Both the position numbers and the translations under genes were made by a program. From Candidatus Omnitrophota bacterium (lineage in GTDB: Bacteria; Omnitrophota; Gorgyraeia; JABMRN01; RBG-13-46-9): a stretch of 64,000 bases of DNA. Location: assembly GCA_013203315.1 (NCBI GenBank), contig JABMQJ010000026.1, positions 56,511-120,510 on the forward strand. Reading direction: 5' to 3'. The notes beneath the pieces are model-generated. The model had not been told where the DNA came from. It searched no databases and saw nothing but the letters and a program-made list of their open reading frames with translations. Of the stretch, positions 4,162 to 54,211 are shown in pieces (positions within the stretch are counted from its first letter, which is position 1; every line of letters starts with the position of its first letter).

Positions 4162-4181
4162 CTTAAAAAAGCTTGGCAAAA

Positions 4182-4270
4182 ATCTACGTGTTTTGAGTTT
4201 CGTATCTACGTCTTTTTTTATGTCCTGAAACTTAGGACATTTAAAAAGGGATAAATAAGGAGATCTACGT
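4182..4270 (+). repeat. Three ATCTACGT copies in the leader (4182, 4204, 4263) plus hairpin 4220-4240
   Basis: Read directly. The third copy lies between the AAGGAG RBS and the GTG start. Confidence 0.75.
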
Positions 4271-7200
4271 GATGAATGCTTGGCGTCCTTGGCAGTCTTG
4301 GCGAGTTTGGCAAGAACGCAAACTAAATAAACGCGAAAGTAATTATAATAATATAGATGCTAATGGTCTATCCGGAGGCGGTGTGTCTTCGGACGATTCT
4401 ATGGAAGGCATGGCAGTTTGGACAAAACGCCATGCCCTTTTAATTAAAACTTTAGCATGGGTTTTAGTTTTTGCTTTTATAGTTTATGACATAACATGGG
4501 CGCAGGGCGGCGAGCCGCTTAGCCTTGGCGCTAAGGCGAGCGCCGTAAAAGTAAACGGCAGAGTTCACGAAGAAGGCATCAGGATACCGCGCGACGCCGG
4601 CTGGGCTCACGAATCGCATATCAACGGCAGCGACGAATTTATATTTAACATACAAGACCCGCACGCAAGCCTCGATGCACAGCACTCAATCGTAAGAATC
4701 CTCGAGTCACTAAGCTCAAACTACGACCTGAACCTAATCGCGTTAGAAGGCGCCGAAGGCCCGATAGACATATCGTTTTTACGGACCTTCCCGGACGCTG
4801 AGATACGGAAGCACGCGGCCGAATATCTAATGCGCGAAGGCCGCATGTCAGCGGGTGAATTCTTCGCAATTGTATCCGAAAAACCGATAAAGCTCTACGG
4901 CATAGAAAATAGTCGCCTGTATCTCGAAAACGTGGAAGTATTTACGAAATTCATGGAATCGAGGCAAGGCTGCATAGACCACGTAAAAGGCGCTTTAAAA
5001 GCCCTAGAGAAATTCGCGCCAAAAGTTTACTCAAAAGACCTTCAAAAGTTATTGAAAGCGTCCAGGCTCCACGAGGAAGACAAGCTCGCATTCGTTAAGT
5101 ACTGGGAAGTTATTACGAAAATCGCAGAAGAACGCAATGTTGAACTTGGGGATTTTGCGGGCCTTCCGCAACTACTGGCAGCAATTGAAATCGAGAAGGA
5201 AATCGATACAAAAGAGCTCAACAAGGAAAGAAAGCAGCTTCTTGACGAGCTTACAAATACGCTCACAAAGCCAGAGCTCGAAGACCTCGTAAAAACATCT
5301 CTCGATTACAAAACCGGCAAAGTATCCCAAAGCCAGTTTCACAAGTACGTGATGCGCCTTGCGCTGGATAAAGGCCTTTTCCTTCAGCAATACTCCAACC
5401 TGGCAACGTTTAGCCGATACATCGCCGCTTACGAAGACATAAACTTCATGCAGCTTTTCCTCGAGATAGAGCAAGTTGAAGCCCGTCTCAGGGAGATCTT
5501 ATTCCTGAGCGATGAAGAAAGGGAGCTCTATAACTTCACAAAAGCAGTCCGCACCACAAAAAAGCTATTCGATATCGCAGTAGGCAATAGCGACTACGAA
5601 TTTATCCTGGAAAGCAAGAAATACTTCAATACAGATAACCTGCGCGAATTTATTAACAAAACCTACAAAAAATATGCCCTGATCAATGAAGATGAGTATG
5701 ACGTAAATCGCGTATTCGAAAAACTAAGTGATGGCACCGAGCTTTATAACGTAGCCCAAAAGCGTAATAATGCCATGATTTCAAACACCCTAAGAGCCAT
5801 GAGGATTAACAAGGAATACGCTGCCGCTCTCATAACCGGTGGTTTCCACTCAAAAGGCTTAGCAGAACTCATAAGAAAAAAAGAGCTTTCATACCTGATT
5901 GTAATGCCGAAATACGAAGGCGAAAACAAAAGGCCGTATATAGCCGTTCTTACACAGAAACGCCAACCTTACGAGGAACTTCTTGAAACCGGCGAATACA
6001 TGCTAGCAGTAAGGGCTTTCTGTTGGGACAGCGATCCGCGGAACATGGCAAGGGTCATAATGCCGATCGCAATATTGGCAGAACGCGGGCCTCTATCATT
6101 TGAAGATCTTGTTACGCAACACTATGAACAATTTTTACCTGTTTTTGAATACTATCAGAAGGCAAGAGAACAGTGGGGTGGCGATGGCTTGAGAACGCCG
6201 GTTGCGGAAAAAGACTTCTGCGCTATATACGGAGCAGAGGCGGATGCAAGCGGTAAACCGATTAGGGGCGAAGATGGCAAAATTCAGATAAAAACAAAAC
6301 CGGTTGTAGTTAGAACATCGGTAGCGAACACACCAGTTTTTGTCGTGCGCCTCAAAATAAACGGTGAGAGTTTTGTTGGCTGCTTCGCTGAAAAAGACGG
6401 AAATTTTGAGTACCTCAGCCTGGATAGCTCAATGGCTAAAAAAGCAATAAGGAGCGCGACACGAAAAACCAGGAGATTAGCTTCGGAAAGAAAAGAAATT
6501 ACCGCCGCAGTAGCGCGAGACGTTTCAATTGACGGGGCTGAAGGCATATTAGAAGGGCTAGGATCGCTATATATAGAGGAAAGCGCACTTAATACAGACC
6601 AAATAGCAGAGCGTGATAAGGCGCTTGAACTTATTGGAGCAGCAGCCAGTCGGCTTAATGGCCAAGAGGTAACCGTTAATAGGGCTGTTCGAGCCTTTGC
6701 AGGCGCAGCAGGTGCAGCAGGATATAGGATAGACCGAAAGAAGATCGGAGAAGACCTTCAGAATGTTATTGCAGCAGAAATAAAAAAGAAATTAACACCG
6801 GAAGCTGCAGTCATACCGGATTTAGATAACAGGCTTAGCGAAAAGATAGAAAGATCCTTAAAGGAGCACCCCGAACAGAGAAATCCGGAATCCCTAGCAA
6901 GTTTAAAACAAAAGCTGCTGGAATTATACAAAAAGATTTCGTCTTCTAAAGATATATTAGGTAACCCGGAGAAACAGGAGAAACTAGCGGCATTAATTGA
7001 ATATACATTTGACAAGCTTTTAGATCAAGACGTAGATGATCTGAAGCTCCCGTATACTCCTCACGGCGCAAAACACTCGCTTGACGTTGCTAATTATATG
7101 GAAAGCCTGGTAGAAAATACCCCCGGTCTTAAAGAAAGGCTGGAAGATCTCTACGGCGAGAATTATAAAGAAATAGTTTTTTTGCTTGGACTTCTTCATG

Positions 7201-10200
7201 ACATAGGATATGCCGGATTGGAAGGCGCTAAGAAACAATTTGGAAAAGATAAAGTCGAAAAAGGTTATCATGCTGACTTAGGTGCGGCTATGGCAAGGGA
7301 TGACTTATCCGCTATTTTGCGGGAACTTTTTGGCATGGAAAGAGATGGGTCTCGGGAAGACAAAAGCGCGTTAGACGATTTCATAGATGCGATATTGCTG
7401 CACGGCGCGGATAAACGAAGTGTAGAAGAAGAAGGTCCTGAAGGTTCCGGCGAGCATAAGCATACACCGGCAAGCGAAACTAATAACCCTCTCCTCATGC
7501 TGGTGAGGTTAGCAGATAATCTGGATGTCTCCAGGGATAGGCTGAGAGGTTGGCAGAAGAATCCGTGGTTTATGAGAATACTTTATCACATGGCGAACGA
7601 TCAGGTTCTGCAGGATATTTCAGAAAGAAAGGACCTGACAAAAGACCAACGCGAAAACTTAATCAATGAAAGATTGAAATATCTAAGGGCAGAGGAGCTT
7701 AAAAAGCTGAAAAAAAGAAAAAAACTTGCCCAAAGAGTGCGGGAAAGTGGTGATACGGAAGCCATGGAAGAGTTCTGTAATGAGTTTCAGATTGATCCGC
7801 AGACAGATCAAGAAATGATAATGCAATTATTGGAACAACTAACTAAGCCAGGCTCTGAACAGGAGTTTAAGAGAATTGAAGAAATGATTGGCAAAATGGA
7901 TAACGAGGCATTCAAGCACTTTATAGGTGCCTTGGCTATCAGGGAACTTATATTGAGCGTAGATGAAGAAGGAAATTTAGCGATAAAAGCCATCGTTACG
8001 GACAGGGCAGACAATCCTATTTGGAGGGAGGCTGCCGAATTCCAGATAAATGGTAAAGGAAGAACCAATAATGCGCTAGAGTCACTTAGTATAAACGGAA
8101 GAACTGTGAGAGTCCAAATCAGCTATGGAAAAAAGCAGTTGGAACTACCAATGCCAGGTGATCTCGGGAAACCAGTTGGTGCATTGGCCTCAGTTGCTGC
8201 ATTGGCCATTGATGTAATGGAAGCGCAGAGCGTACTAGCTGTGCCGGGAGCCGAAGTGCATGTAGAAGACGTTACCCTGCCTGCAGCCACGTCTGTAGTA
8301 GACGTTACCCCGCCTGCAGCTACGTCTGTTGTAGATACAACCCAAATCCAGCCTCAAATCGAGCTGGATGAAGCCAAGAAAGTATCTCCGTATTTAGCAA
8401 GAGTACTCCCCACATTAAGCCCAGAAATATTGAGCCAAAAAACCGGTATAAAAGCCGAGGTAGTAGACCTTGCCGGCACGCTACTTGGCATAAGAGATTA
8501 TCTTTTAATGAAAGAAGAAGGCAAAGAATTAGTCATGGCATGGATCCTGGAAGATAACGAGAGAAAACAGAAGATGATGGAAAAAGCCGGAGAAGATTAT
8601 AAAGGAGACGGTTATGATTTAGTCTTGCAGGTAGCTGAAAAGCGTTTTGTAGATGGTAAGAGAGAAAAAGAAAGCGACAGGGCTGCTGCCAGACGCGTTG
8701 CATTAGGAATGGTGGCGCAGATTATAGCATACTACGGGAAGGAAAATATCGCTGCCCCCGGTGTCGAAAAAATAACAGCCAAAGCGCTGCAGGGTAAAAT
8801 AAATAATGCCTTTACAAGGAGAGATAGGGCCAGACGCGAACAGCTTCTTGTAGAACACGGCATAGACATAGCGGAAAGTAATGCCCAGCTATTAGTAACC
8901 ACAAATACAATCGACTTGGAAGGAAGAATAGGCATATTAGGAAGGTTCGGCGTTACGGTTACCGCAGATCTTCTTTTATGCAGCGAAAAGTTATTGGAAA
9001 CCAATATACCTATTATAATTGGGCATGACATAAAACCGGAAGATATAACCGCAGATCACGTTCATAACTTTCAAGATACGTTAAGAACAGAGCGCGAGGA
9101 AGATGTAAGACACATAGCGAGCTTAGGTGCTGACGAAGAAAATGCAGGGGCGCAAGCAACCGCGCGGCACGAGGCCGTTCAAGCAAAAATAGACCGAGTG
9201 GATCGTGAGCGTGAGGCACTTGTGAGGAACTTAATATCTGCGCGTCAAAAAAAGCACAATACGCGCATGAAGGCAGAAGGCCAGAACCCGATCGAAGGTA
9301 CATACGAGGATATTGCGTTTCGCAGGGACGCGCTAGGAAAAGAAATTTTCGGCAAACTTTCCTCGCTTAAAGAGGAACTTGCACAGAATATTCCGGAGGA
9401 CGATGCAATAACAGCAATAAAGCAAGAACTGGAAGAGCTCAAAACAAGGGTAATAGAACTTGATAAGAGAAGAAGAGAAAGAAAAGGTATTTCGAGAATA
9501 CTTAATCTCGTAACCCGAATGATAATAGGAAGGCGTGTCCGTAGGATAGCTCGGCTGGAATTTGAACTAAACGAACGAATTCCGCAAGCCGCGCTCATGA
9601 TTCAAAAGATAGATCTTTATGAAGCAGGATTGCTTCAGGCCGAGCCGCAGGATATAGGCATGTTGCGAAATGAAATCGAGAATGCCCTTTCTCGAAATGA
9701 CGCCAAAGACTTCAAAAAGCTAGTAAGAGAATATCTGACAAAAACAAGGGTATTAAACGATATAGATAACGAGCTAGACAAATTTGAATCGGATCGAGAA
9801 AATCAGGTTGCCCACGAGGAACGATTCTACATGTATTGCCCGCAGTCTGTAAGGGACTATATAGAGGTAAGGCGCTCTGAGATAGCCGAGCTTAAGGCCA
9901 AGATAGATGCGCTTGACGCAAAAATAGAATCCGGAAGAACCGTGAAAGGATTCAGGAGAATCCTTAGAGGTCGTCGCTTTGGAATTTTGACTTTGTTAAC
10001 ACGTGTTAGAAAATTATTTCATAAATTGCAGCTCAACAGATTAGAGGCACAGTCAACCCCGGAAGCGATTATTGCCAGGCTTTCCGAGGCTGCAAGGAGA
10101 CACCTTGCATTCCAAACCAATGAATGGTCCAGATTCAACGGATTTTTAGGAGGTCTTGCGGATATTAACACGCTTGTCAAGGGAGGTATTCCGGTGATAG

Positions 10201-13200
10201 CAGACATGGCAGTTCGTCTTGTTTCAAGGGAGCGGCAAAAACCCCTTACACCGGAGGAAAGAAAAGAACTTGAAGACAAAATAGATGAAAGAGTAAGAGA
10301 ACAATTAGGCATTGAAATCACCGATGACGAAATAAAAATAGATGGGAATGGCAAAATACAAAGCGAAATTGCATTATTTTTCGGAAGAAACCTGAATTTA
10401 AAACCCGGCGCACAGCAGCCATCATTCCTGAGAGACTTCGTTTTTCTTACCGCTGTTAAATCCGGAAAATTCAGAATAAAAGATAAAGATGGAAATGTCA
10501 AAGAAGTGAATCTTAGTAAAAGGTATGAAGCGCTTACCGGTGAAGAAAAACAAGCATTCGATAGCGAACTTGCCGAGATATGCCGCGGCGCAGAAGATGA
10601 CCTGGTAAAATTAGCCATACACGATTTTCTTATACCATGGGCCGGAGAACGGCAACCCAATATAGTAGCTACGCTCTCTGCAAAAAGTGAAGAACTAATG
10701 AAGAGCCTCGAGGCGCGCAATGAAGCCATAATCGATCTTTTCGAAAAGAATTTGTTAGTTACAGATAAGGAAATGATAATACAAATGGAAGCGCCGAGCA
10801 TACCCTGGAGAGATCTCGGCAGGGTAGCTGCTACCATTGCCGGTATTTCCCTTGTTGGGGGCATCATTGCAGCGACCGGGGGATGTGGTGCATCGCCAGT
10901 ACTCAACCAGCCTGCCGTTGAACAAGCAGCGCAGCAAGCTGCGCAGCAAGTTGCAGAAGTACCGCAAGAACCAGCCTTGCCGCCGGCAGAGCCAACAAAA
11001 GCAACCGTACCTACCCCTGCGAAACAACCGGAAAAGCGTGTTACAAAACCTAAAGCAAAGACACCCAAAGCCGAAGTAGCAGAGGAACCCGAGGTAGAGA
11101 AACCCAAGGTATCGGAAGGATTAGATGCATTAGATGTATTATTGCCACAGGTACCGGGAGAAGGCGAATGGCTAGATAAATTAGTGCCAGAGGTAGAACC
11201 GGGAGCAGCGATACCTAGAGCAAGAGTGCCAGAGATGGTAGAGCTGTCCGTGCGAGACTTCCATGAGAGCCTGTATGGTTTCCCACGGGATCAAGCCGAC
11301 GGACTTAAAGACACTCATTTAACACGCGATGATTTGAAGAATATCTTTTCAAGGCTTAGCGGAAGTGTCGGACATAATCAGTCGTGGGAAGGTGCGCTTA
11401 GTCAAACAACAATACATATGAACGGAGTTTTAAGATGGCTTCGTGATAACAACATAAAACCTGAACAAATTCCTATGCTCTGGAGCCGCATTCCGCGCAC
11501 AATGCTTACAGGCGACCAAGCGCATACGATAGACCAATTAAGCCCCGGATTTTTGGAAGTATTGGGCCTTGCAATGAGCTTTTACGCAAACGATATTGCA
11601 AGCCCCGCAAATATTGAGGAACGCGGAGGAAGAGCGCTTTTGGCGCAAAAAAGAAGCGAAATATTACGCGACCTGAAAAATTATATAGCAGGCGGAAACA
11701 TTATTGCGAAGCCGGGTTCGCGTGCCGCACGCTTTGAAAATATCCCCGAATCACGCCGAAGGCTTGAACTTGGGTGGAATAAATTTGTGACTAATAGCCT
11801 TGGATCGATAGATGCCGCAACTATGACTCTTTCCGATTCAAAGGACTTAAGAAGTGAACAGGAAAAGTTATCCCCGGCGCTTGATATTATACTTGGACGA
11901 CCGGTGAACCTTAGGAGTAAAGTTGATAGAAACCTACTGCAGACCCTCGCTTCCTTTGCAAAACTTAACGGAATTAAAGCAGAGGACATGACCTTGCTTA
12001 TAAAAGCCGGTATGCCATTAGGACAGCTTGTACCACTATTTCATAGTTCGGCTACAATATCAGAACAACAAAGAATCCAAGCCAATATGACCCAAGAAGA
12101 GATCAGCAGAACACATGCCCGCCATAATGCAATAGCGCTTAGCCGAGCTCGCCAAAAACATATAGCAAGGCTAGATAAGGCCAACCAAAGATTCCAGAGA
12201 AGAATGAGTACTCTTGAATCTCAAGGTCTTACAGGCCCACGAACAGAATACGTGCAGAGACAATTAGCAGACTTACAAAGCCAAATAGATGCTCAGCAAA
12301 CTCTCTTAGGTTATTGGATAGAAGCAGATAATTCCAAGTATTACTTCGAGAGGGAAATAAAAGAGAGTACAACATCACCTGGGGACATCAGGCAAGAAAT
12401 CGATGGAACCATAGCCGCAAGCAACAGCATAATATTGTTAAACGAACATTTAAATAATTTCCTTAGCATAATAAAGGCGACGTTCGAGAATCTCCGTCCG
12501 GGCGAGAGCTTGAGCGATATACTTGCCGAGGGAGATACGGCGCAACTCGCTAGGCTCGGACGTGAAGCTTATGCGGTAAGAGCAAATTTTGCAACTATGT
12601 ACGAGGTCATTTCAAGAGTCGCTGACCAATACGAGAACCCGCTAGCAAGCGCACTTTACTTTGCCTCCCAGAACGGGAAGGCTTTTCCGGGCACATATGT
12701 TGATGAAAATGGTGCTAGAAAAAAACTGGCTTATTTTGTGGAAAAAGACGGCCAGCGCCCGATCATAAAAGTTATTTATGACAATGAGCCGGAACCGCGC
12801 AGGACCTATGTAGACTGCGAATTTGATGAAAGAGAATGGCGAAATATAGAGGCGTCGGTAAAAGGTGAACGTGACCCCAACCCTACCAGGGATATTAACG
12901 ATCCAACCAAGCCCGGTAAGCTTCTTGAAAAATTAGGTCCCGCTATGGAAATAGAAGAAGGCATAGAGGGAATTCCCGAACCCGTAATCGGCTTACCCGG
13001 GGGTATAGGCGACTTGGGCGTGACTGGTGAAGATCTCTTACAGCCCGCGACACAACCCAAAGTGCAAACCGAAGCTGAAAAAGCGGAAGAAGCCCGTCTG
13101 GAAAAGGTGAAGGGAGAGATTGCAACTAACTTTGACCTAGCAAATAAGGCACTGGATGGGGCAACTGAGGCCCTTAACGCGGATAACCTCGAAAAAGCGG

Positions 13201-16200
13201 ACGACGAAATAGAAAAAGCAAAGGCTTTATACGATAGACTTGTAAGATATTCCTTCCGGAATGAGCCGGTAAAGCCCGGGGACCTTAAGGCGCTAAAAAA
13301 CAGGATATCCGAAGCCGAGACTCAGCGGAAGGAAAGCCGGATATATAAGAGAGTACAAAAGCTTGAAAAAAGGTTATCTAGAATCTCAATAACCATAGAA
13401 AACATACGTAGAAACGCGAATAAATTTGAAAATGAAACGGACTATAAACGCGCGAAAGATATAATTGACGGCATATTCGCTTCTTTAAAGAAAGAATTTT
13501 CCACCGGGGAATTGGAGTATAAAAAACAAGAAATAGATGCCTTAAAAGTGGAGTCCCGGCTCGCCGATAGTTTTGCCAGGGCATTTTTATTATTCAAGAA
13601 AGCAAAACAGGATCAAGCAAAATTCGATGCCCAAAGGGAAGAAGCAAAGCGTAAGTACGAGGCGATAAAGGAAAAAATAACCAACGCCCCGCGACTTCAG
13701 GGACTTCCCCTTGCCCGGGGAATGGTGCACGTATTTCTGCATGGCAACGGCAGCCCCAGCCTCGCGCGATTTTTTAACAGAAACAAACCGAGGCACGGAA
13801 GATTTGACGAAGGCGATGTTATTGTAAGTGATACACCGGTACCCGATCATCTTAAGGGTAAGAATGTGGAATGGTATCGTTATAAAATAAGTTTCCTCAG
13901 GAAAGAAAAAATTCCCCTTAAGTCCGGCGATCCCAAAGCGACCCATGTTTCGGTAGACGGAAAAGAGTACTCGGTATATGGCCCTGTTTACATGGTATTG
14001 GAAAAGATAGAAAAAGGCAAAAAAACTATAAGGGTAGCGAACGATACAATTGATTTGATGAAGCTTGTAGGCACAGGGTATACACTTAATGATGAAAATG
14101 GAAATCCGCTGTTCTCAGAAGCCGTAGTAAAACTCGCCAAGGACAACGACTACGATGCGGCTGCGATACAATGGAATATAGATTTATCGAGACAGAGACA
14201 CGAAGGCATACGCCAGGCGAAAGAGAACTCAGAGGAGCATGTGGTAAGACTGATACTCGATTCCTGGCAGGCCCATGCGGAAAATCTTGAGATTGAAGAA
14301 GCGTGGGCGGAAATGCTTCGCACAATGTCCGAGGGCACAAAGGTTGAACTGGGCATATCAATAGGGGCCTATACAAAGTCGCTTCCATTTGTGTCGGTGT
14401 GGGCCGGTATTACCAGGATCATAGATAAAAGAAGAGATGCTTATGTCAGCCAGGGTTTCTGGAAATATTATGTTAAGATTCAAGAGGTTAAGAATAGACA
14501 GGTTAAGCGGGTAAGCAGGGCCCTCGCGGACCTGACTGAACTGGGAGAAGTAAGGGCCGAATTGACACGCCTCAAAGGCGATGAAACGAATTATAAAAAT
14601 CTCCTGAAGAAAGAAAGGGACAAAAAATCTCAAAGGGCAATAAGGGCCAGGCTGGCTTCTATCGGCGCAGAAATAGCAGGGCTCCAGGCCCGCGACAGCG
14701 AGTTAAGCGAAGGCGTTCTTACTGAAATGGGCGAAAAGCTTAAGATAGATGAGATAGTAATCGATCCTAATAGACGTCTGAGGAAATGGCAGATTAACCG
14801 GATTCTTGCTCAATATGGGGTAGACGCGGGCACGGTTTATCCTGTTATGCGCGCATACTATCTCAAAAAATGGGCTGAGGCCAAACAAAAAGAAGCAGAA
14901 GCAGGAAAAACACCTGTATATACCTCTAAATCCATCGTAAGCGGTTCTGCCAGCGCCGCCGGTTTTTATGGCGGCATATTCGCGAGCATGGATGCCAAAT
15001 TCGTAGATAAGGAACTGACCCCGGCAGTGGCTGATGTAATAAAACTACGGCAGGATGTAAATGCCAATTGGACGGCATACAATTCGCAGCAGAAAAAGAA
15101 AAAACTCGAAGTCATTTCTAAGGCGATAGACGAAGTTATAGATGCCTCGAATAGGAAAATCAAGAATCTGGCAGAGCGCAAAGCCGATGCGGAGAAGAAA
15201 TACAAAAAAGGACTTTTAACCTTTGGACAATACGACGAGGCGCTTATAAAACTGAGGGAAGCAGAAAAGGAACACTCCGCTATAGTAACGCAGGGAAGCG
15301 CAATACAATACGATTTATGGATGCTTCATGACGGCCTTGACAGACAGCTGGGAGACGCCGTTAAGCTCAAGAGAGAAAAAGGCGCAATAACCGCAAGTAA
15401 GTTCATGGAAGATGTGCTCAAAACATCCCGCGAGATTGGCGCCGGCAAAATGGCAGATGTAGATGTGCTGGAACATACCCGGCGCTTGAAGGAAGGGAAG
15501 GATAAAGGCGTAGTTACAATTGAAGGCGTTGGTGGCTTTGTAAGCACCGGCTCGGACGGAAAAGGTATTTCCTTGGGCGCGGGGGCATCAACAACCCTTA
15601 AAATCGATACCTCGCGGGAACAGAAATTAGATATATTGGCAGATACCCTTCTTATATCTGAATTAAGAAAAGAAGCAACGGAAGAAGACGCGGCCATTAA
15701 TGCCTTAAACGCACTCATTAGTTATAGGGGTATAAAGAAACAGACAGAATACGCGACCGCAGGGAAGAAGCATTACGAGGACTATAAAAAAGGCGCCGGC
15801 ACACGAGAAGAAAAAGCCGAAGCCGAAGGATATCTGGCTGACGCGGTTCTTAATTTGAGAGGAGCCGAGCGATGGCTGACATCCGCAATGAGAGAGGCAA
15901 TCACGTTAAGAGGCGGAGATTTTGCGAATGTTACGGATATAGATGACCCCACTGTATTATCCGGTATTATAGCCGAACTAAAGGTGAATCGTTATAAAAG
16001 AGAACTTGAGATATTAGACCTGCAGAAGAAAATTATAGAGGCCATGGCCACAATAATAGCCAAAGGAGATTCGTTCTCCCTGGCTTTAGGCCTTGCCTAC
16101 GCGGTTCAATCAGATGGTGGTTCCACGCTGCAGACGATCGGATTTAACATACAAATGGAATCGAATATATTCGGTCCGTTCTTACCCCTTATTATCGGTA

Positions 16201-40200: not shown

Positions 40201-43200
40201 CTGGTATAAAGAGCGCTACCGAAGAAGGCGCTGAATTAACAGAAGAGGAAAGAATCGTTCTCGATGACGTATGCAGGCACGGCGCAAACTTTGCTGACTT
40301 CCTGAACGAAAGGTATCAGTTACCAGCAGAAGTTGAAATATTAGTTAGGGGTCATTTTAATCATCAAACATTCTTGTCAGATATAGCAACGAGGCGCAAT
40401 GAAATATCTATTCCGCTGGCCAGATTAGAACTTCTGTTATCGATAATTGTTACGGTGGATTCATTTGAAAGCGGAAATAATAAATTTAAACAAGCACAAT
40501 ATAGAGGAAGCGAGCCCGAGTCATTTACCGATTCACTGGGAACTGTTGAGGTGCATGGCAAAGATGGGTTCGTAGTCAGAATGTGTAGGGATTGGGGCAT
40601 AAAAGATACAAGGCCGCAAGATGTGCTAAGAAAATTAATAGTTAATAGGGACCCCGAAATACTAGGAGTCGTAAGAGAAGCGCGGGAAGCGGCGTCAATC
40701 GACGAAGCCCTTACGCCCGCTGATTCGGAATTTATCACAGCCAGCCGCCGAATTATGCCTCGTCTGCGCAGGGTAATTAGAGCAATAGTAGATTCTGTCC
40801 GTGACATATTTGAACGACTAAGAATAGAAATAGTCATGCGCCGGATCGATCGAATGATAGTAGACATAATTGCCAAAGGCGAGTTACCGGTAATAGTAGC
40901 AGACATTGATGGCACGATAACAGAATCAAACATGCCGGTTTCCGATGAAAGCTTAGACGTGATTATTGAACAGGCGCGACTTGGCGTGCCGTTTATGATG
41001 TTAACCGGTATCAGCGCTGCAACTGCCCGCAAACAATTATTTGACCCACTCATAGGACGCCTTAATGAACGGATAGATGTCGATAAAAGCGTTTTGATGA
41101 ATTGTATTTTTGCAAGCGACAACGGTACACAGATCTACATATATGATGAAGAACTGAATAATATAAGGTGTGTATTTAATATTAATATGAGGAAGTATTT
41201 ACCAACCGGAAAATACAACCAAATCTTTAAAATTGTCAATTCATGTATTCGCCTGTTTGACATGCGTACGATGCTGCAGGAGAAAATGGGCTGGCAATTT
41301 AACGATGAGGAATGGGAGAAATTCAGAGCAACTTGTACTGTAAGGAGAAAGATAGAGGGGGGTGTCAGTCAAATAACATTGATGGTGCTAAGCAGGAATG
41401 CTACCCATGAACAAAAAGAAGAATTCCAAGCAAAAGGCGGCGAAGTGCTACGAAACGCATACGCAGATTATATAAATAGTGAATTTGAAAGACTTGGTAT
41501 AGATGTTAGAGCAAAGGTTTCGGGGTTAAGCTCAATAGACATAAACCCTGCAGGAATAGATAAAGGCTGGGCCATAGAAACTATCTCAAAGCTCTGTAAT
41601 TTAACCCTCGATAGCATAATATTTATAGGTGATGCATTTGGTCTAAGAGACAATGATACCCCTGCGCTTAGATTTGCCGAAAAGGGCATCAATGTCGGCG
41701 CGCGTGTTGCAAAATCAACACATAAAGGAAAAGAATTTCTGCAGCTACGGGGTACCGGGCCCAGAGGATTTAACAATGTAATAAGAAGCGTCATCGAATA
41801 CGTTACAAGATTCCAAAGGACGTCAACTAGGCTACCCATTGCTTCAGCATTGATGGCAAGATTAGAAGCAGGACCTATCCAGATACAGGATGCAGGAGCA
41901 GTGATAGCGGATGGAGATCTAAGAGATATGCAGCATTTACTGGATACACATCTCCAGATCAGTTTTGGAGGGGCGATTGAAAATTACGAGCTTTTCACTC
42001 AATCTTTCCTGAATCAATGCGTAGCCGTTGGCCTAGCGGTTAATGATAAAGAGTATATGAAATACCTGGCAAACATTACTTACGATGCTGTAGGAAACAC
42101 ATCGGAAGGCCGTGACGAGGCGCATCTTCCCGTTGTTCCTGTGCATTTATCAGCAGGAATGGGGCAACTCGAGTTTTTGATTGCCTGTGAAAAAAGACCC
42201 GACCTGGATAGCTTTATAGTAACAACCATGGATAACAGTAACATGCCTATTGAAGGCCTGCTGACGCTCGAATTCAAAGTCGCAAATCAGGATACGCCTA
42301 TAAATGTTTTTGTTTCGCGTATTGATCCACATGCTAGGCGTCTGTCCGGCGAAAGGGATCCCCAGTTACTTGCTGCCTTGGAAGAATTAAAAGAATTAGT
42401 AAGCGATAGAGTAGTGGACACAACTCCTGGCGTACAGGCCACGGGTAGGGTGTTAACGAACAAGTTGGCCAGGCTATTTGATAGCATATTAAGGTCCAGT
42501 TTCAAAACCGGAAGGGCTACTGAGATTCCGGTGGACGAAGGTCGTGGAATTAACTGGAGCGAGATAAGAGAAGGGTTCCAGTTTGTGACACACGACGAAC
42601 TTATGGAAAGCCTGGATGTCCGTGGCTTACCTGTTAATATACATCCGGGTCGTGGAGGGGAAACACTGGGCCATGGCGGCCTCCAGGCTCACATAGATAG
42701 CTATATATATGAGAATTTATCAGATGAAGAGCTTAAAACTCTAGCAAGACACGAATTAGCCCACCTTGACATTTTCAATGTAGAACGTATGTCCGAACAG
42801 GAAAGACAAGCGATTGAAGGCACAGATGCCTATAAAACTTGGGAAGCATGGGTCGAAGCAGGAAAGCGTGAAGGTCGAGCGCAAGAGACATTTGTTAATA
42901 ACCTCCCGGGGTGCAATGCAGTAGCGGTAAGCAGAAAAATAGAGCAGCTAGCGCGCAAAAAGAGACGCCAAAACCAAAGAGTAGCAAGCCAAGTGCTGGT
43001 CGCAACACCCGAAACAGTCGAACCCGCAGTCGCAATGCCTCTGACACCGAGCGAATATGCACGCGTATGGTCTCCGGATATAGCCACACACGATGAGATA
43101 GTCGCAGCAATTAACCCAACTCTTGAGACAGCCATTACGGCATTAAGCGGTAATGATCTTGATCCAATAACAGAAGTATTAAGGAATATCGCTGCTACAA

Positions 43201-46200
43201 CAAACCCGGATGAAATAAGCGCATTAGAAGAAGCAATAAGGCAATTATCACGAAGGTATTCAATTTGGTCAGCCTATCTCGGCCAAAGAATTGACGAAGC
43301 AAGAGATAGCCTTTCCGGGAGCGAAAGAAACCGCGTTGACGCACTATTTACAAGAGCAAGAGAAAGCGTAAGAGCTGCTCAGAACGAACAGTGGGCAGTT
43401 ATAAACGCCGGCGGCGTAGGAAGCCGATTCTGGCCTGTTGGATATGAGAAAAAACCCAAACAGCTTTTGTCGTTTGAACCGGGCGAACCTTCACTTCTTC
43501 AATCAGCAGTACTGCGTCAGGTGAATCCCGATAACCCCAACTGTATAAGTCCGGATCATGTCGTGATTGTTACAAATGCTAATATCGTAGACGAGGTTTG
43601 GGAGCAGGTAAAGGACATAAAAGTAAATGGTGTAGGAATTCCAAGGGAAAATATTCTAGGTGAACCTAAGGGGTTGAATACGGGGCCTGCACTAAGGCTA
43701 GGCGCGTTATTTATTGAACAAAAAACCGAGGGTGGACCCGATGCTATTATACGAGCCCTGTATGCTGACGCTGTTATTCCTGATCATGTATCTTTCAACA
43801 AGGTACTAGCCAATTCCGCTGATGTTGCAAAGTTTACTAATGTTTATGTTGAAGTAGGTGTAACGCCCGGAAGAGAACTAGATGGAAGTCTTGTAGTGAA
43901 TCCAAAATTAGGACATCAGCAACTAGGAAAAGACATAGGCGGAGACGCTAATTATCTTCTTAAGAGAGTTGAGAAAGAGGTAAAGGAAACCCCCCAGGCA
44001 ACGCATGATTATTACAAGGGTTTAGTTGAGAGTGGTGCTACATGGAATAGCGGTTGCGTAGTAGTCAGAGCAGGTGTTCTGACAGACATGATACAGACAA
44101 TGCACCCCGAGGTAGAAGAGGTATTTCAGAAATACAAGGATCGATTAGGGGAACCAAGCGCCCTTGAAGAATTATATGATGAACTTGAAGAAAAGGGTGC
44201 AAAGTTGCCGTACGACACTTTCTTTTCAAAAGATGCCGTTGAAGGGGAATACCTAAGATTTGGTGTCGTAGTAACAACGGGCCTTGAGAAGGACAACTGG
44301 GATGACGTAGGTAATCTCGCAGAATCTCGCAGAATGGCCAAAATTCCGTCGGAAGACAATTTCATTGCGCAAGGTAATGAAGAAAACATAACATTTGAAG
44401 AAGACACTGAAGGCAATACTGTTTATGCAACAGATGACGGAACAAAAGTCGTTTTACATAGCGGAGTAAAAGATTTAATAGTTGCTTACGAGAGAGGATG
44501 TAATTCACTACTTGTATTGCCAAGAGATGATTCTGCAAGAGCAGGCGAAGTCGTAAAAGAAATAACTAAGCAAAGTTCACACTATCACAGGTTGCTTCCC
44601 TATGCAACGGGCGAAAATCCGCCCGCGACCTGCGGTGAAGCCCACGAACAAGATGAACACGAAAATACTAAAACCGGCGATGCAATTTTTGTAAGCGATG
44701 ACACCCATAATTGCCGTCTTACCACAAGCAAAGGACTTATCGCTGCGATTAATCTAACCGGATATCACATCGAATGGGATGCGGGGAAAAACGAAATACA
44801 TGTTTCTCTTGAGAAACCAGCCGAACCCGCAGTCGCCATGCCTCCGACACCGGGCGTATATGCAGTGTCTCCCGAAAGAGCAGAAATAAAGACAACGTCT
44901 GTTACGGCTAAGCACGATGGTATTTTACCATGGCTGGAAGAGGGGATAGCAAGCGGAGCAATAGGTGAAAACAGAGACCTTATCGTTTTTGATTCTCACT
45001 TGGATGTTTTTGCCTTCTCATCGGGAAATGACGGCTGGATAGCTACTATCAGGAATACAAATATGAAAGTCGGAAAAATATATGCTGTTGTGCCTACAAT
45101 GTGGGGCACTGTTCATTCGCTTAACGCAACAGCTATGAATTTGGCAAAAAGCCTGAATGTGGAAATTGTATTTGGCCTCGAGCAATTACCACAATTTGAT
45201 GAACCGGTTACAGTTTCATTCGAAAACGACTTTGTAGACATAAATCTAATTCATGCAACTAAAAATGAAGTAGCCGGAAGACAACGTGAAGTTGCTCGCG
45301 CACTTTCCGGAAGAAATATTCAGATAGAAGGTTTCCATATATCAAATGAAACAGAGCCGGAATACGCAGACGGTGAAGATAAAGGCTTTATAGTGCGCAA
45401 TATGTGGGCTACGCTTGCTGAGGAAGGTTATGACTTAGAGAAGAAGGACACATTCACAAGATTACGCGCCCGAAACCCGGCCAAAAGAAAACAAGCTGTA
45501 GCTGATTTAAAAGAAGACCACCCGCTTCTTACAGAAGAAATAGATGCGCACCTTGGAGCACTTCCTATATCGGGTAAGACAATATTAGACAGAGCAAAAG
45601 AAACAGGTAGGCCTGTCCTTGCATGTAACATTGATAACGGCGAACTATCATCGCTTCAGATACGTTCAATGATGCAGGCAGCGCTCGACATGAACGCATT
45701 CATCATGTTTGAAGTAGGACCTGCTGCGCTACTCACTTATGCTGATGGCAAACCCCAGCTTCCTGAATACTGCGCGCGCGAGGCATACAAATTATACAAA
45801 GAAACAGGAAAATCCGTTACATACGCTGTTCACCTTGACCACAACCAGATAAACAGAAAGAAATATAATACAAGAGGCGAAAGAAGAAAAGCTGTCCGGG
45901 AAGCCGTTGACCGCGCAAAGAGTGCCCTTGCCGTAGGATTTACATCTTTTGCGACTGATACATCTACATTAACCGACATCGACAAAGACACGGTTAAAGA
46001 TCAGTTGCTCCCTGTAGTTAATACGGCCACAAGGATTCTTTCAGCTATATATGATGAAGCAAAGGCTCTTGGAGTAGAAGTAGGTAACGAAGGTGAGGTC
46101 GGCGACATAGGCACTTCAATAAGCACAGTTGAAGACGCCGTGCATTATTATCAGGAACTTGTTAAGAAGTTAGGCGCTCTCTCAAAGAGAATGGGTAAAG

Positions 46201-49200
46201 ACTTCACGAAAGAGCCTCTTATAGACATCATAGCACTAAACATTGGCACTGCCCACGGATATACGTTTAATGAAAACGATCATTTAGAACCTTACACGCC
46301 GGGTAGAATAAACGTCGAACGCGCAAAAGAAGTCCACGAGGCATTTAGAAAAATGGATCTTGATGTAGGTGTAGCATTACACGGCTTCTCAGGTACGCCC
46401 ATTGAATTTGCCGAAGGCTTTGTAAATACAGGCATAGCGAAGGTAAACATAAACACAGACTGGCAGGCGATCGTATGGAAGGTTCTCTATGCGTACTATC
46501 CGGATCTTTACAGGGAAATCTTTGACCTGGCCAGGGCATCAATACCGGAGAAGAAAAAGGCGGGCCTTGTCACCGATGATGCCAGCTATGACTTTGAACA
46601 CGCCAGAAACCGCATCATGTTCGGCTACGCTAGAAAGCTCTTCCGCGAGAAAAAATACCACCCACTTCTCGCAAGGCTTACTAACGCTCTAAGAGACGGC
46701 ACTAATACGTTAATCGTTGCACGGGAACAAAGATTAGAAGACCACGTAAACATACAACTAACCCCCGCAACACTCGAGGACCTAGCAAAGGATGATGGCA
46801 GTTGCGCCGAAGTTACCTCGCAGGGCGCTATCGACATGTTAACAGGTGGCCGCATTACCGAACTCATGACGGCTCTCGGCGAAAAAGACGTAGCAAGCGA
46901 TATTGAAGTCGACAGGGAAGCTGAACTACGCCTGCAGGATTGGCAGATTGCTGACTTAAGAGAGGCTGCTTCCGAAGAAAAACCAAGCCCGGCCACGAGC
47001 TTTATTGTAGAAAGAATATTTGCGCTCTTTGGCCTACCTTATAGGTCTACCAAAGAAGCGCCGATAGTCGAGACAATATTTATGAAGTTAGGACCGGCGT
47101 TTGGCACCTTGGGAGCGCTTACGTACTCCAACCCTAACAACCCACTTCTCAATCTTGGTATCTTTGCGGCAGTGCTTGCAATTTCCTTGATATTGTTTGT
47201 GCTTTCGCACGCCTTTAATAAAGAGGAAGATAAATATACATCCGCCATAGAGGCAGCGCGTACAACTCTTTGGTTTGCAATACCCGTTGGACTGATAACA
47301 CTTGCAACTCAGAATATCTTTGTCTTTTGTAGCATCGCAGCTGTTGCAACTATTCTTACCATAATGTCACACATCAACATCAATATCGAAGCGCTAAAAG
47401 CAAGAAGGGCTACTGCGACGATAGGCCAGGGGCCGCACTCTATGGGAGATTTAATGAATACCGGAAAACAAGGCATTGAAGCTCTGAAAGAAAGGCTGGA
47501 TGATACTAGTATCTCCGCTAAAGAAAGGGCGCGAATAGCGGATTATCTGTTAAGAACCAATACCGGCTCTCATGAAGACAAAGCCAAATGGCATTCTACT
47601 TTGGTTGCAGCAGAAAAGGCTATTTACGGTCCGAAAACAAAGGTTCCTAGAAATTTCATGGCCGACCCCTATAAAACCTGTATGGCGTTAGAGAGAATAG
47701 GAGATTTAGACCTTACTGAGCACCTCTGGGATGTCTTGAGATTATTTTTCGCCGTACAAAGAGAAGCAGTAAAAATTCATCGAGAACACAGGTATCATGA
47801 AATAGATACAATAAAGAATATCAGAAATTCATGCATATATGCTTTAAATAAGCTATCATCTGAAAATATGAAAGATGCTTTATTTGGAATTACCATGAAT
47901 GATGTAAGCGCCGAAGCGGTACAAGAGATGCAAGAAGTAGTATTACCGGCTTTAGATATTGTAGATGGGGTATTTACTGAAGAAGATGATGCAGAGATGC
48001 AAAAAGGCCTTAATCCCAATTTGGCTAACAATATTCGACAGGAGATATTTGCAAGTTTAATTGCCGGGGAAAGGGTGAATTGGAGTGCCATGGCTCGAGA
48101 AATGGATGGCTGGGATTTTCCGGAAGACCCGGACGCGGCAAAATGGATAAATGAAACAGCCAAACCGAGATGCAATCCTAGGATCACAGAATATCTGAAA
48201 ATGCGCAGGAATAGAGGTGATGCGGGAATACTCGTTTACTTTTTAGCGGAATCTAGCGTAGGAAGTCGTGAGGCGCTGAGTGAATTAAGATCAGAGATCG
48301 AACAAGGACAAGTGCCTGACAGGTTGAAGTACAGAGCAGCGGCAGCTATACCGCACTTAAGCTTAGGAGACAATGATGTTGAAAAAGCCACACGCGTTTA
48401 TGAAGAAAGTGATTCTTGGCCCATAAAAGGACGGGCAATAGTCATGTTAGGCCTTATAGGCACAGCTAAGGCAGCAGACGCATTGACGCAAATAGTAAAA
48501 GGTATTACGCTGAATCAGGCAGGCGAACACAAGAGTAAGTTATCCAAAGATATGAATTACGCGATATTGAATTTAGATCTGGTATGCGTAGAACCTATAT
48601 TAAAAGATTTTGATAGCTACGATCCGGAAGTTCAGTTACTTATCATTGGAAGCCTTGGAGCGATGAAGACGCCTTTTGTTGTTGAAAAGGCGTTAGGGTT
48701 TTTGCAGCATAAAACCAACGTAGATGAAGAAAGAGATGTATGCATTATAGCCATCGCCTCTATAGGAGTAATGCCAGATACGGTTTTAGATGAATTTAGG
48801 AAAATGTTACACCCAAGCTTCAATATAAGCGATAGGCTTAGAGCCTCTATAGTTAAGGCGTTGGGGAATTCTACCAACATAAATGTGCTGCCCTTGCTCT
48901 TCGATGAACTTGACCGCTATGATCCACAGGTAGACCTGCATTCATACTTGCATGTAATCGATGCGATTATCGAAGTTGATAGTCCACAGGCAATGAATGT
49001 TTTGGTAAATGCCCTAAATAGACTTAACAAAATAAACTTCGACGATAAAGCACTAGCGACACCAAAGGAACGCAGAGAACACAAGATAGCAGGCTTTGTT
49101 CTTAATAGATGTCTTGGCGAAAACATAGATTTGCTTATCGAAAGCCTGGATATGAGAAGGATTTCCATGCACGATTTTAAAGAAACACTAAAAACATTTT

Positions 49201-52200
49201 ATGCCTGGGAGACCACCTTGCTTGGCAAGAAAATGTCTGGTGAGGCATGGGATGAAGTTGCTTTGATGAACTTATTTGCTTATGACCTTGCTGATGAAGA
49301 GTTGATTAACAGGATGATAATATTTTCAGAAATGAGTAAAAAAAGCATTTATCCCACCAACACTTTACTTCGCAGCGCTTATGACGCATCGGTAAACCAA
49401 GGTGTATTGGATTCTTCGCGTTTAGATGAAATGCTTGATTCATGGGCCAGAATACAGAAGAATTTTTACACACAGGAATCTAGTTTTGATTCACAAAATA
49501 GATTTTATTTTATGCTGGGATTCTCGACATATGCCCACCTAAGGCGTTATGCGTTAGAAAAAAGCTGGGCAACTCTTGTCAAAAAAGACGATACCGATTC
49601 CCCTGAAGGTAGTTTAGTGCTATGTCATTTATACAATGATTACAAACAAGCAGTCGCTAACGGCAGCGCTAATGTATTTGGACCCATAGGAAGCATGTCT
49701 GCCAGAGAGAGTAATGCTTTAAAAGTAGCCCGTTATGAACAAAGACAATTTTTGGAATGGGCCATGGCGCTAAAAAGGAGAGCAGATTCATTAGGCAGGG
49801 ATCTCGTGATTGTACCAAATATAGTTTATGGTCATTTTTTGACCGGTTCGATAAAAGACGAATTACGCAAAGCCGGCATAGAAATACGTGACGCGGGAGT
49901 CAGTTCCGAACGCGCTGATGATGCTTGGAGTTATGATAACCGATTCCATGTTAAGACTCAAACGTTCAGCATGCGTTTTTTCAGAAGACTGTTGGGTATA
50001 GACGGAAAAAGGCCTATAGTAGTCGTGCTTGACGGCACAAGAGAATTTTCCAGTAGGAACGTCCCCGGCAAGTTTGTGCGCCTACCCGCAGCGCTAATGC
50101 GCGTATATATAGATACATTTATTGCAATAGCTAATGTTACTGCCCAGGGCTCGATTGAAAACTACTACCCTTCTTTCGCAAATTTGCGGTCTTATGACTA
50201 TATCCGAACTTTGCTAACTAGAAAGTCATTCAACAAGCTTGCAGAGAAGGTGCGAATCGCCGCCGGTGAGAACGAAATAACGGATGGAGAAAATTATGAA
50301 ATCGCACATTGGAATCCTTTGGGATTACCATTACCATCGGGTCGCGAAGGAAGAGAATGGCGGGGTTCACACGACAGGTATAATAATGAGGGTCCGATAT
50401 GGCCGATTGGGGTAAACGATATCGATGGTCCTGCTTTGATATTAGTTAATCTGTCTATGGCGCCTCATGAGATTCCGAAAGAAGCAGGAATCTCTGGGCA
50501 AGGAATCGTACGCTCCGATTTTGATGACGAAGAGATAACCGAAAGCGTTAAAGTAGTTTGCGAAGGCACTCCGGGAGAAAAAGTAGGTCCTCCAAGTGTG
50601 GTCGGAAATTTAGACGAAGCTAACTACGTGCCCGAGGAACATAGATATTTGCAGCAATTCAACGAAGCTAATGTTCCTATGGTTCGTTATACCGAGTTTG
50701 TAGAGGCACCGGAAGGCCCCGCCGAAGCGGAGAAGGCGCCAAAGACTCTTGCTGCGAAGAAAAGACCCAAAAGGAAGGATGGTGGATTTGTCACTCTCGA
50801 ACTTCTTGTGGGTATGGGCGGCCTTATAATATTAGGTATACTAGCCATTGCCAGCATCGCCGGAGTTGCGGAACCCGGCGTCTTAATCGATGCATTGCCA
50901 GCTGCTACAGGAGTAGCGGAACCCGGCGTCGTAATCGATGCATTGCCAGCTGCTACAGGAGTAGCAGCGAGTACGCTCTTCGGTATGAGCATGGGGACGA
51001 TTGGCTTGGTAGCGGTTGCCGCTCTTATTACGGTAGCGGTTACAGTCTTTGTTATGAAACGAGTGCGAGGACGCCGCGAGATAGGGCCCACGGTTCACTT
51101 GGAAGAATTGACGACAAGATATAGAGAATTCACCGGTGATATGGACAACATCATTGATTCATTGGCTGGCATCGTTGAGCCATTAACGAGCGTAGAAACA
51201 GGGGATCCAGAGGTTCAGGGTCGTCTTCATGAAATGGTACAAGACGCGCGTAGAATGCACCGTGACTTCATAACTAACGGCAGGGACGTTTTTGGTGAAA
51301 CCTTAAAAGACCTTGAAGAATCATCGAGAGTAGTTAGTGTACTCTCGCCTCAGGATAGAGCCCATGTTAGCTATGCTTTATTTTTGAATAGATCATTTAA
51401 TATAGCACACGAACTTATAGAAGGCGTAAGGCGATGGTCTGGAACCTCGCTAAAAGCTTGCAAAGCTGTTCTTTCGCCAGAGGATTTTGAACGTGCAGAA
51501 GAGGCTCATGCTGCACTTACTGAACGATTAGAATTAGCAAAAGAACATACAGATGGTTTAATAGCTTCAATAACACCAATTCTTCCGGCGACAGAACCTA
51601 AACGGGGCCCGGTTGGACGTTTCTTACGAAGCGTTCCTGGCATAGGCAGGTTTTTCACGATAGGCGCCGCTTTCTTATCCGTCATCGGAGCTGCCAGTCT
51701 TGCGGACGCTGCGCCTGTAGCAACAGAAACTGCCGGTGAACTCGGCCGAGAAGCTTTACCCGGAATAGTCGGCGGAATCAGCATAACCGCTGCATTACCA
51801 TATGTGGCAGCGATTGCTGCAGTTATTGTTGTTGTTATTATTGGCGTTGTAATTATAAGGAAGAGGAGGGTCTCCGCCTTACTAAGCCAGGCAAGAGAGC
51901 ATATTGAAAACGGCAGGTATAGCGAAGCGCTAGCAATCGTAAATGAGATCTCCAATAATGAAGAGGCCGAGGAGATAGCAAGCGAAGCTAACGAAATGCG
52001 TGAAAGAGCAGAAAGGCCTGTTATCGCTATAAGGAGCCTTAGTCATGGCGTTGCAACAGCAGTCTTACATCTATTGACCTTTGCCACCATGCCCATGGAT
52101 ACCCCTCTTACTACCAGTCGGCATAGCCAGTCTGCAGTCGCGATTCTCAGACAGCTGCACCAAAGGGTGAGCGATTTACACGTAAGGACGGTCGAGATAT

Positions 52201-54101: not shown

Positions 54102-54132
54102 CGCTCTTTGCTCTTTGAAGAAACGAAATAAA

Positions 54133-54211
54133 AAACGTAGATCTTGCTCCTAAACGTAGAGGGGGCGAGAAAGAAACGTAGATCTTGCTCCTAAACGTAG
54201 AGGGGGCGAGA
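54133..54211 (+). repeat. Two identical 38-bp direct repeats (41-bp period), each forming a hairpin
   Basis: AAACGTAGATCTTGCTCCTAAACGTAGAGGGGGCGAGA at 54133 and 54174. Confidence 0.9.

Follow-up and report, generated by a model that had tools for sequence, protein, structure and literature searches.

The DNA analysed here is a stretch of 64,000 nucleotides (nt) from the genome of a Candidatus Omnitrophota bacterium of a freshwater site (G000:C25:56511-120510; called the window in the following). It holds giant gene 1, a gene of about 50 kb whose 5' leader and 3' trailer carry short words that are complementary to one another. Translation may start at GTG 4269 or at ATG 4272, and we prefer the ATG because it aligns with the M-N/K-A/T-W starts of giant gene 2 and of relatives. 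The encoded protein begins with a head domain that is common to Omnitrophota giant genes and has a HATPase_c domain near its C-terminus. After a 1.4-kb spacer the open reading frame (ORF) of giant gene 2 runs from 55560 onward and leaves the contig end. Giant gene 1's 3' untranslated region (3' UTR; 54102-54326) spans about 225 nt from the stop codon (54101) to the U-run of a strong terminator, which is its predicted 3' end. The features of the locus are collected in Table 1.

Table 1. Features at both ends of giant gene 1 and in its surroundings, with positions in the window (SD, Shine-Dalgarno sequence; TIR, translation initiation region; ECF, extracytoplasmic function).
Feature	Position	Strand	Basis or remark
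ECF-type sigma factor gene, upstream of giant gene 1	3425-4057		Pfam Sigma70_r2 and r4_2
Putative giant-1 promoter, GTGAAA-17 nt-GATTAT	4121..4149	+	by eye; block in common with giant-2 leader
Small 5' hairpin AAGCUU/AAGCUU and first GCUUGGCA word (4171-4178)	4159..4178	+	sequence, leader fold
L1 (4182-4189) and L2 (4204-4211), each ATCTACGT, spacing 22 nt	4182..4211	+	word search
Leader hairpin AUGUCCU-GAAACUU-AGGACAU, 7 bp	4220..4240	+	sequence, leader fold
TIR	4257..4285	+	SD, L3, start codon, codons 2-5
SD AAGGAG	4257-4262	+	
L3, AGATCTACGT, in SD-to-AUG spacer	4261-4270	+	
UGCUUGGCG, codons 2-5	4277-4285	+	
Giant gene 1	4272..54101	+	16,610 aa counted from listed GTG start (4269); ORF list
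Tandem duplicate of 41-nt unit (54130-54170, 54171-54211)	54130..54211	+	98% identical
Linker word AACGUAGAUCU, one per 41-nt unit	T1 54135, T3 54176	+	
9-bp hairpin per 41-nt unit, two G.U pairs each	54142-54150/54162-54170; 54183-54191/54203-54211	+	
Long hairpin, apex loop CUGCCAAGC	54213..54261	+	19/20 positions paired, six G.U
Intrinsic terminator, 27-nt arms then U7	54266..54326	+	fold; inferred mRNA 3' end
100-aa ORF within IS200-like insertion	54478-54780		no Pfam match
Y1 transposase within IS200-like insertion	54832-55275	-	Pfam PF01797, E 4.9e-22

Complementary words in leader and trailer

The octamer ATCTACGT occurs three times on the plus strand of the leader (4182, 4204 and 4263), as an earlier note on this DNA had claimed. 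Its reverse complement is found at 54135 and 54176 and also at 7030 and 48718 inside the ORF. On both strands of the window the octamer has 7 matches compared with 1.17 expected, and none of 100 shuffles reached 7. The word ACGTAGA follows the stop codon four times (54135, 54154, 54176 and 54195), again in agreement with the note, and has 13 matches in the window (4.65 expected; 0/100 shuffles reach 13). Moreover, AGATCTACGT (4261-4270) is indeed the exact complement of ACGTAGATCT at 54135 and 54176, and the 3' UTR word ACGUAGAUCU at these two positions exactly complements the ribosome-binding region of giant gene 1. Four copies of AGATCTACGT exist in the 1.5-Mb genome, namely the one in the leader, the two in the trailer and an unrelated one on C7. 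The octamer is not a common motif genome-wide, since its 39 copies on both strands lie near the median of letter permutations (37). Comparison of leader and trailer with the genome by blastn-short returned only self-matches, the trailer unit being unique. Therefore, the excess is local to the two ends of the gene. A word search confirmed that the leader of giant gene 2 lacks the octamer.

In the trailer the words are displayed by a 41-nt unit that is tandemly duplicated, and the four trailer copies therefore amount to two independent ones. The 11-nt loops of the two 9-bp hairpins present ACGUAGA (T2 at 54154 and T4 at 54195). Accordingly, the claim that two trailer copies sit in hairpin loops holds for the pairing read by hand, whereas the minimum free energy fold prefers a nested alternative with T3 at its apex. 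The predicted probabilities of being unpaired are 0.58, 0.43, 0.97 and 0.43 for T1, T2, T3 and T4. The apex of the long hairpin further downstream carries GCCAAGCA (54235-54242), an exact complement of 4277-4284 (UGCUUGGC, codons 2-5), and TGCCAAGC (54234-54241), the complement of 4171-4178 (GCUUGGCA, at about -100). Besides, the leader word GCTTGGCA complements the trailer apex exactly over 8 nt. By our own pairing list the strain variant 54252 T>C converts a G.U pair of the long hairpin to G-C. The terminator was not called by a simple terminator scan. Compared with shuffled sequences the trailer fold has a z-score of -8.1 on the sense and of -4.1 on the antisense strand, and by these folding models the trailer is a structured sense-strand RNA domain. 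A search of 3900-4500 and 53900-55700 with Rfam 15 at E up to 10 gave no match that reached its family's gathering score; the best one, mir-7883 on the terminator hairpin, had 26.3 bits compared with a gathering score of 50. The trailers of 10 relatives gave 0 Rfam matches at E up to 0.01.

In the leader the putative promoter of giant gene 1 stayed below the threshold of the promoter scan, and its copy in the leader of giant gene 2 (TTGAAA-17-GATTAT, 55429-55457) was called. If the putative promoter is read correctly, it suggests a transcript start near 4156-4160 and a 5' UTR of about 115 nt. Inspection of the leader and trailer words by eye revealed no ECF-sigma or sigma-54 promoter consensus. 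The coding sequence starts with a 9-nt periodic repeat (4279-4312; CTTGGCGTC / CTTGGCAGT / CTTGGCGAG / TTTGGCAAG) that codes for WRPWQSWRVWQ, so that its first 40 nt contain several copies of the target word GCUUGGC. Multi-copy CTTGG starts were likewise seen in a G200 downstream gene and in L008. In other giant-gene families the DNA word of the first codons recurs as direct copies in the leader (AGACGCGAG in C18, minus strand, oriented 78950-79110, and in L055; AGACGCTCG in L051), a hint that giant genes more widely place copies of their start-proximal words in the leader.

When intramolecular folding is disregarded, the predicted energy of the leader:trailer duplex is -64.5 kcal/mol. This value was equalled by none of 400 other trailers combined with the giant-1 leader, by 2 of 400 other leaders combined with the giant-1 trailer and by none of the own pairs of 400 other genes. 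L3:T1, L2:T3 and L1:T4 pair in a colinear antiparallel manner, and the leader hairpin takes up the difference in spacing. A cofold of both ends pairs 4182-4207 with 54119-54142.

A 3' hairpin conserved in a subfamily of giant genes

The relatives that share the N-terminal head domain are Candidatus Omnitrophota metagenome-assembled genomes (MAGs). For Omnitrophota as a whole, a 2026 preprint reports 176 complete genomes (10.64898/2026.06.07.730766). With the N-terminal 500 aa as query, many giant ORFs of the class proved to begin with this domain; 39 of the 61 relatives' genomes had matches, and 73 of 401 genomes had them at E 1e-75 or better. A single-protein query on the genome contigs returned no match, an alignment query gave matches, and the C-terminal 500 aa found none on metagenome contigs. 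For genes that were predicted to be complete, the sequences of the two ends were collected. In a first round 37 were tried, 2 were skipped because of missing ends and 35 were kept; in a second round 20 of 21 were kept and 1 was skipped. The start codons of the relatives were picked automatically and are doubtful in at least four rows outside the subfamily described below (L079, L109, L113 and L096). Among the first 35 genes the outliers were giant gene 1, a 12,493-aa gene of G054 and a 1,022-aa gene of G011. All three start with M-(N/K)-(A/T)-W, encoded by AUGAAnGCUUGG.

The subfamily was defined by the leader alone, as genes with CTTGG within +1 to +16 of the start. It has eight members among the 55 genes, and CCAAGC follows the stop codon within 200 nt in seven of these eight, compared with 2 of the 47 other genes. 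Five more members came from tandem arrays on named contigs, in which the trailer lies in the next locus and ORF continuity was confirmed by open-frame lengths; four of them were positive and one was negative. A subfamily gene fetched later (G407) was positive as well. The G405, G406 and G407-4096 ORFs were excluded from the tally, as their apparent stop is internal and their real 3' ends are missing. In L197 (G407:C2), L198 (G406:C251) and L199 (G405:C56) a frameshift or an in-frame TAG interrupts the ORF and the frame continues, which could be assembly error, pseudogenisation or recoding. Taken together, in 12 of the 14 subfamily genes with a true 3' end the apex of a trailer hairpin exactly complements the gene's own start word (at least 7 nt), and CCAAGC was found in 2 of the 49 other giant genes (Fisher p 3e-9, with kin that are not independent).

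In the 11 positive genes examined (the 12 minus G407) CCAAG is located at the apex of a hairpin of 19-25 bp. Its predicted probability of being unpaired is 0.61-0.87 compared with trailer means of 0.31-0.44 in the 7 trailers that were folded whole. In each of these 11 genes the hairpin is stabler on the sense strand (sums -366.9 versus -281.5 kcal/mol) and has 1-6 G.U pairs. An alignment of 12 sequences keeps CCAAG invariant and shows compensatory double changes in 10 of 15 consensus pairs. The covariance model R1, which was built from this hairpin alignment, matches exactly one place in this genome and one place in each of the five family genomes sampled (5/5), and it has matches in 9 of 151 class genomes. 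At six of seven new R1 loci a long ORF stops 90-200 nt ahead of the apex; the G012 gene upstream of an R1 match has its start within a masked run of N. R1 can serve as a marker of genuine giant-gene 3' ends when assemblies are fragmented. The architecture common to the subfamily is a stop codon, a small hairpin with an anti-spacer word, complementary to the SD-to-AUG spacer, and a long hairpin with a GCCAAG apex. We also considered the apex as a regulator of the next gene in tandem arrays. This was rejected, as four of five downstream genes lack CTTGG and, in our reading, the apex in G011 and on the PLNN contig fits the start of the upstream gene better (runs of 9-10 versus 6-7 positions).

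Start and apex words change together between genes. The pair is UGCUUGGC / GCCAAGCA in giant gene 1, G054 and JAZDOS, UGCUUGGCG / CGCCAAGCA in PLNN gene 1, CGCUUGGCA / UGCCAAGCG in G326, AGCUUGGCA / UGCCAAGCU in G274, GCUUGGCAAA / UUUGCCAAGC in G200 and CUUGGUA / UACCAAG in G011. In PLNN gene 2 GACACUUGGC and ACUUGGCGAA face UUCGCCAAGUGUC, and the pair is also given as GACACUUGGC/GCCAAGUGUC. When own and cross pairs of 11 genes were compared in a matrix, contiguous Watson-Crick runs averaged 8.36 in own and 7.65 in cross pairs (p 0.048), and p was 0.026 without giant gene 1 and a near-duplicate. Hence, the compensatory changes at both ends that the earlier note had suggested looking for in other giant genes are present between start and apex of the subfamily, and we regard this covariation as a real but modest signal.

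A second module was found in 5 of the 14 subfamily genes, in which a word between the stop codon and the long hairpin complements the gene's own spacer. These anti-spacer words are AGAUCUACGU in giant gene 1 (the complement of AGATCTACGT), GGGGUAAUCUCC in G054 (12 nt exact; listed also as GGGGTAATCTCC), GGGUAAUCUCC in JAZDOS (11 nt; also GGGTAATCTCC), GGGUAAUCUC in G200 (10 nt; also GGGTAATCTC) and GAGGUAACCU in G011 (10 bp with one G.U; also GAGGTAACCT). By eye, G407 has a case of 8 bp. The chance expectation of the exact words is 0.006 to 0.0003 per gene. Like T2 and T4 of giant gene 1, they are placed within a small hairpin's loop or next to it. For the region from -25 to +3 own trailers of the subfamily beat others (p 0.005; 0.021 without giant gene 1). 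As the anti-spacer module is recurrent, ATCTACGT/ACGTAGAT is thus the version of this lineage, with three targets and four displays.

DNA sites and the neighbourhood of giant gene 1

The earlier note had offered three readings of the repeats, namely pairing of the two mRNA ends, a small RNA (sRNA) derived from the 3' end, and DNA sites that bracket the gene. As DNA sites, the words would be inverted binding sites of one protein at both gene ends, formed by half-sites of the palindrome TCTACGTAGA at distances of 19-22 bp, or inverted repeats through which a recombinase flips the gene relative to its promoter. The imperfect inverted copy on which this reading draws was confirmed: 4179-4207 aligns with the reverse complement of 54119-54145 with 27/29 identities and 2 gaps. 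The alignment score is 29 (shuffles 16.4 +/- 2.4, best of 500 = 31), and the stretch of L1 and L2 overlaps the leader arm. Its position just past the putative promoter and just after the stop codon would suit such sites, as would spacings of 22 bp and of 19/22/19 bp, which are near two helical turns. However, the different words of other genes would need different proteins, the hairpins contain G.U pairs and lose stability on the antisense strand in every case, and the order of the modules is opposite to an inverted TIR copy in 6 of 6 cases. Moreover, the trailer unit is not a dispersed repeat, and the only nearby candidate enzyme is the Y1 transposase, which lies inside an insertion that is not in the syntenic G011 spacer. 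A Pfam scan of five neighbouring ORFs found this one Y1 transposase and no recombinase family. The contigs of four DNA runs over 52500-55600, which cover the trailer side only, list no joint at the repeats, although contigs cannot show absence; X1 and X4 contigs break at the 41-nt duplication, as is usual for assemblers. We consider DNA sites very improbable. The different words per gene together with the sense-stabler hairpins with G.U pairs favour the two RNA readings of the note.

Repetitive extragenic palindromic (REP) sequences and bacterial interspersed mosaic elements (BIME) are hairpins at many dispersed intergenic places that are associated with RAYT (Y1) transposases. The trailer resembles them in its small imperfect hairpins by a GTAG-containing word and in the Y1 transposase gene 0.7 kb away. 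We rejected this candidate, as the trailer unit is unique in the genome and the transposase is single-copy, the only one in the genome, and located in the insertion mentioned above.

This IS200-like insertion (54330..55290, minus strand) separates the terminator of giant gene 1 from a conserved block upstream of giant gene 2 and is outside the leader/trailer element. Related strains (X5/X6), which are roughly 92-95% identical, diverge at 54330-54428. The block of about 150 nt (CCCCTCATATATATAGAC ... GACAAAGTGAAACGTCCCCAT; 55275-55420; L031 3125-3345, minus) is kept in G011, and the aligned spacer that includes it has 74% mean column identity with G011; candidates for the block are a small ORF, an RNA and a regulatory region. 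The G011 gene at the syntenic position (G011:C68, L031 3488-6559, minus) encodes just 1,022 aa. It has the head domain (54% identity) and the 3' hairpin in common with giant gene 1, so that the ends are kept and the middle differs 16-fold in length. On the other side of giant gene 1, the sigma factor gene is followed by the palindrome ATGGGGGCGTCCCCAT (4083-4098) and a T-run, which are probably its terminator. A related word, GAAACGTCCCCAT, lies upstream of giant gene 2 and of its G011 orthologue.

The assembly did not reveal the 3' end of giant gene 2. As a candidate we considered an 11-nt complement on C32 and rejected it, as it lies in non-coding DNA beside a dispersed repeat and was taken as chance. 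A repeat of about 45 nt (AATGAGAGGGTATTG..GTGCGGCTTGGCA..ACGACGGAGC) occurs outside the window at seven or eight places, often less than 300 nt from contig ends (C1:51657, C5:75191, C6:39157, C6(-):88717, C16:82776, C22:18211, C25(-):65947 and the end of C32). It contains, by chance, GCTTGGCA, and also GTGCG, the 5' consensus of group II introns.

Candidate feedback of the 3' UTR on initiation

A giant bacterial message takes many minutes to transcribe, and its protein is extremely costly. Building on the words demonstrated here, with their local excess, their sense-strand structure and their conservation and covariation in relatives, we propose that the 3' UTR of giant gene 1 pairs with the initiation region and lowers initiation once full-length transcripts exist. 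We give this reading a probability of roughly one half. Loops and linkers of the 3' UTR would display words complementary to the gene's own initiation region. Four copies of AACGUAGA(UCU) would face three (AGA)UCUACGU copies, of which one occupies the SD-to-AUG spacer, and the apex GCCAAGCA would face UGCUUGGC in codons 2-5 and GCUUGGCA at -100. Giant gene 1 would be a locally amplified version of the subfamily architecture. Base-pairing of the 3' UTR with the initiation region may hinder 30S binding, with the 3' UTR acting either still attached or as a stable 3' fragment after decay or processing. Completed transcripts of a very costly gene would then damp further initiation in a negative feedback.

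Several points weigh against this proposal. Pairing in vivo, repression as its direction and action in cis or in trans would all have to hold, and the transcript ends between which it would act are themselves inferred. A search for RNA runs that contain the locus listed none. The energies are ordinary once both RNAs are allowed to fold on themselves. The earlier note had suggested a cofold of leader and trailer as a check, and in this check the pair was not singled out: the gain is -10.2 kcal/mol, compared with -7.5 +/- 3.3 (31/143 as good) and -6.6 +/- 3.0 (18/143 as good) in the two controls. Cofolding cannot represent contacts between a closed loop and a strand, which is the display mode of most trailer words. 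Accessibility-corrected single sites are weak as well (net +3.2 to -2.4 kcal/mol), and these modelled thermodynamics alone are insufficient to carry the case for pairing. Since ACGT and AGATCT are palindromic, the complementarity is partly self-complementarity, and the leader words are able to pair with one another. The order of the trailer modules, anti-spacer first and anti-coding-sequence second, makes a single continuous duplex with the TIR impossible. Besides, own leader/trailer pairs were no better than cross pairs in 150-nt windows of the first 35 genes (p 0.30; 0.46 without giant gene 1), and with TIR windows p was 0.086 for these 35 genes, 0.19 for all 55 and 0.60 for those outside the subfamily. 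Giant genes thus do not share this complementarity as a general property. In homologous giant genes, for which the note had asked whether leader and trailer are complementary at all, it is found within the subfamily, with different words in each gene, but not in all giant genes. Within the subfamily 2 of the 14 genes lack the hairpin, both of them upstream members of tight tandems without any terminator hairpin, and 8 of the 14 lack an anti-spacer word. When G.U pairs are allowed in the start/apex matrix, p is 0.097 and some cross pairs exceed own pairs in length. Finally, neither Hfq (PF17209) nor RNase III (PF14622, PF00636) was found in the 97% complete MAG; RNase III controls matched in 8 of 14 genomes.

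Some of these points would also suit the view that the words are by-products without a joint function. According to this view, the leader repeat and the 41-nt duplication are local duplications, the long hairpin is a terminator or stabiliser whose GCCAAG apex serves, for example, a protein contact, and GCUUGGC is kept by the encoded Ala-Trp. The ordinary net energies, the palindromic cores and the modest covariation in the flanks are in line with it, as are the two genes without hairpin and the shared ancestry, by which 12 of 14 are not 12 independent events. Yet apex and start words that are conserved for unrelated reasons would be complementary merely by chance, and the exact anti-spacer words of 10-12 nt are lineage-specific and have the low expectation given above. 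One gene holds GCTTGGC in another reading frame (MSLAA), which argues for selection at the nucleotide level, on the RNA word and not on Ala-Trp. We regard a by-product as unlikely.

An RNA-level pairing without repression would rest on the same structural and comparative evidence as the proposed feedback. Here, the pairing would protect the ends of the long mRNA, or it would open the leader and thereby activate translation on completion. In the predicted fold the leader hides part of the TIR, whose opening would cost 5.5-5.8 kcal/mol, and genes for an RNase E/G homologue (C14:30285) and for RNase Y (C18:94833) are present in the genome, which would fit such a role. A precedent is hbs of Bacillus subtilis, in which a 14-bp interaction of 5' and 3' UTR is described to modulate RNase Y cleavage (PMC5737220). 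The conserved targets of giant gene 1, however, fall within the footprint of the ribosome (spacer and codons 2-5), the place expected of a repressor, and protection or activation seems to us quite unlikely. The hbs message resembles the present case in the long-range pairing of the two UTRs of one mRNA, whereas its pairing acts on leader cleavage and not by occlusion of the start.

The proposed feedback on initiation has its closest models in two further systems. A motif in the 3' UTR of icaR of Staphylococcus aureus base-pairs with the SD region, and initiation is thereby blocked (PMC3868564). The likeness lies in a short motif of the 3' UTR, predicted here to be longer than about 100 nt, that is complementary to the ribosome-binding region of its own mRNA. 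In contrast to the single UCCCCUG anti-SD motif of icaR, giant gene 1 displays several words, none of which is a plain anti-SD. Moreover, the icaR duplex is cut by RNase III, for which no gene was found here, and icaR is shorter than 1 kb, compared with about 50 kb for giant gene 1, whose pairing is predicted from sequence. In Vibrio cholerae the 3' UTR-derived sRNAs OppZ and CarZ repress their own transcripts (PMC7398697). A 3' UTR fragment acting on its own transcript, with a feedback proportional to completed transcripts, would be common to both cases, and complementarity to the own transcript at or near the start codon was found in the 12 subfamily genes. RNase E releases OppZ and CarZ, and the keywords of that paper include Hfq; the present genome has the RNase E/G homologue, and Hfq was not found. 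As neither Hfq nor RNase III was found, a cleavage step as in icaR or an Hfq-assisted mechanism cannot be assumed.

More tentatively, and with somewhat less confidence than for giant gene 1 itself, we suggest that the giant genes of the subfamily (10-50 kb) carry an undescribed 3' RNA element that acts as a completion sensor. Only a whole transcript would expose the 3' end, which would then shut down or reset its own initiation; in the window this sensor would be amplified to three target sites and five displayed words. The main text of two published Omnitrophota giant-gene papers does not mention UTR, untranslated, terminator, sigma or hairpin, and a literature search for Omnitrophota and UTR found no paper. 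If the proposal is true, it would be the first regulatory feature proposed for Omnitrophota giant genes. It would add a new phylum, and messages of 50 times the length, to the few bacterial cases of cross-talk between 5' and 3' UTRs (icaR, hbs and OppZ), and it bears on the question of how a cell controls the costly message of a giant gene.

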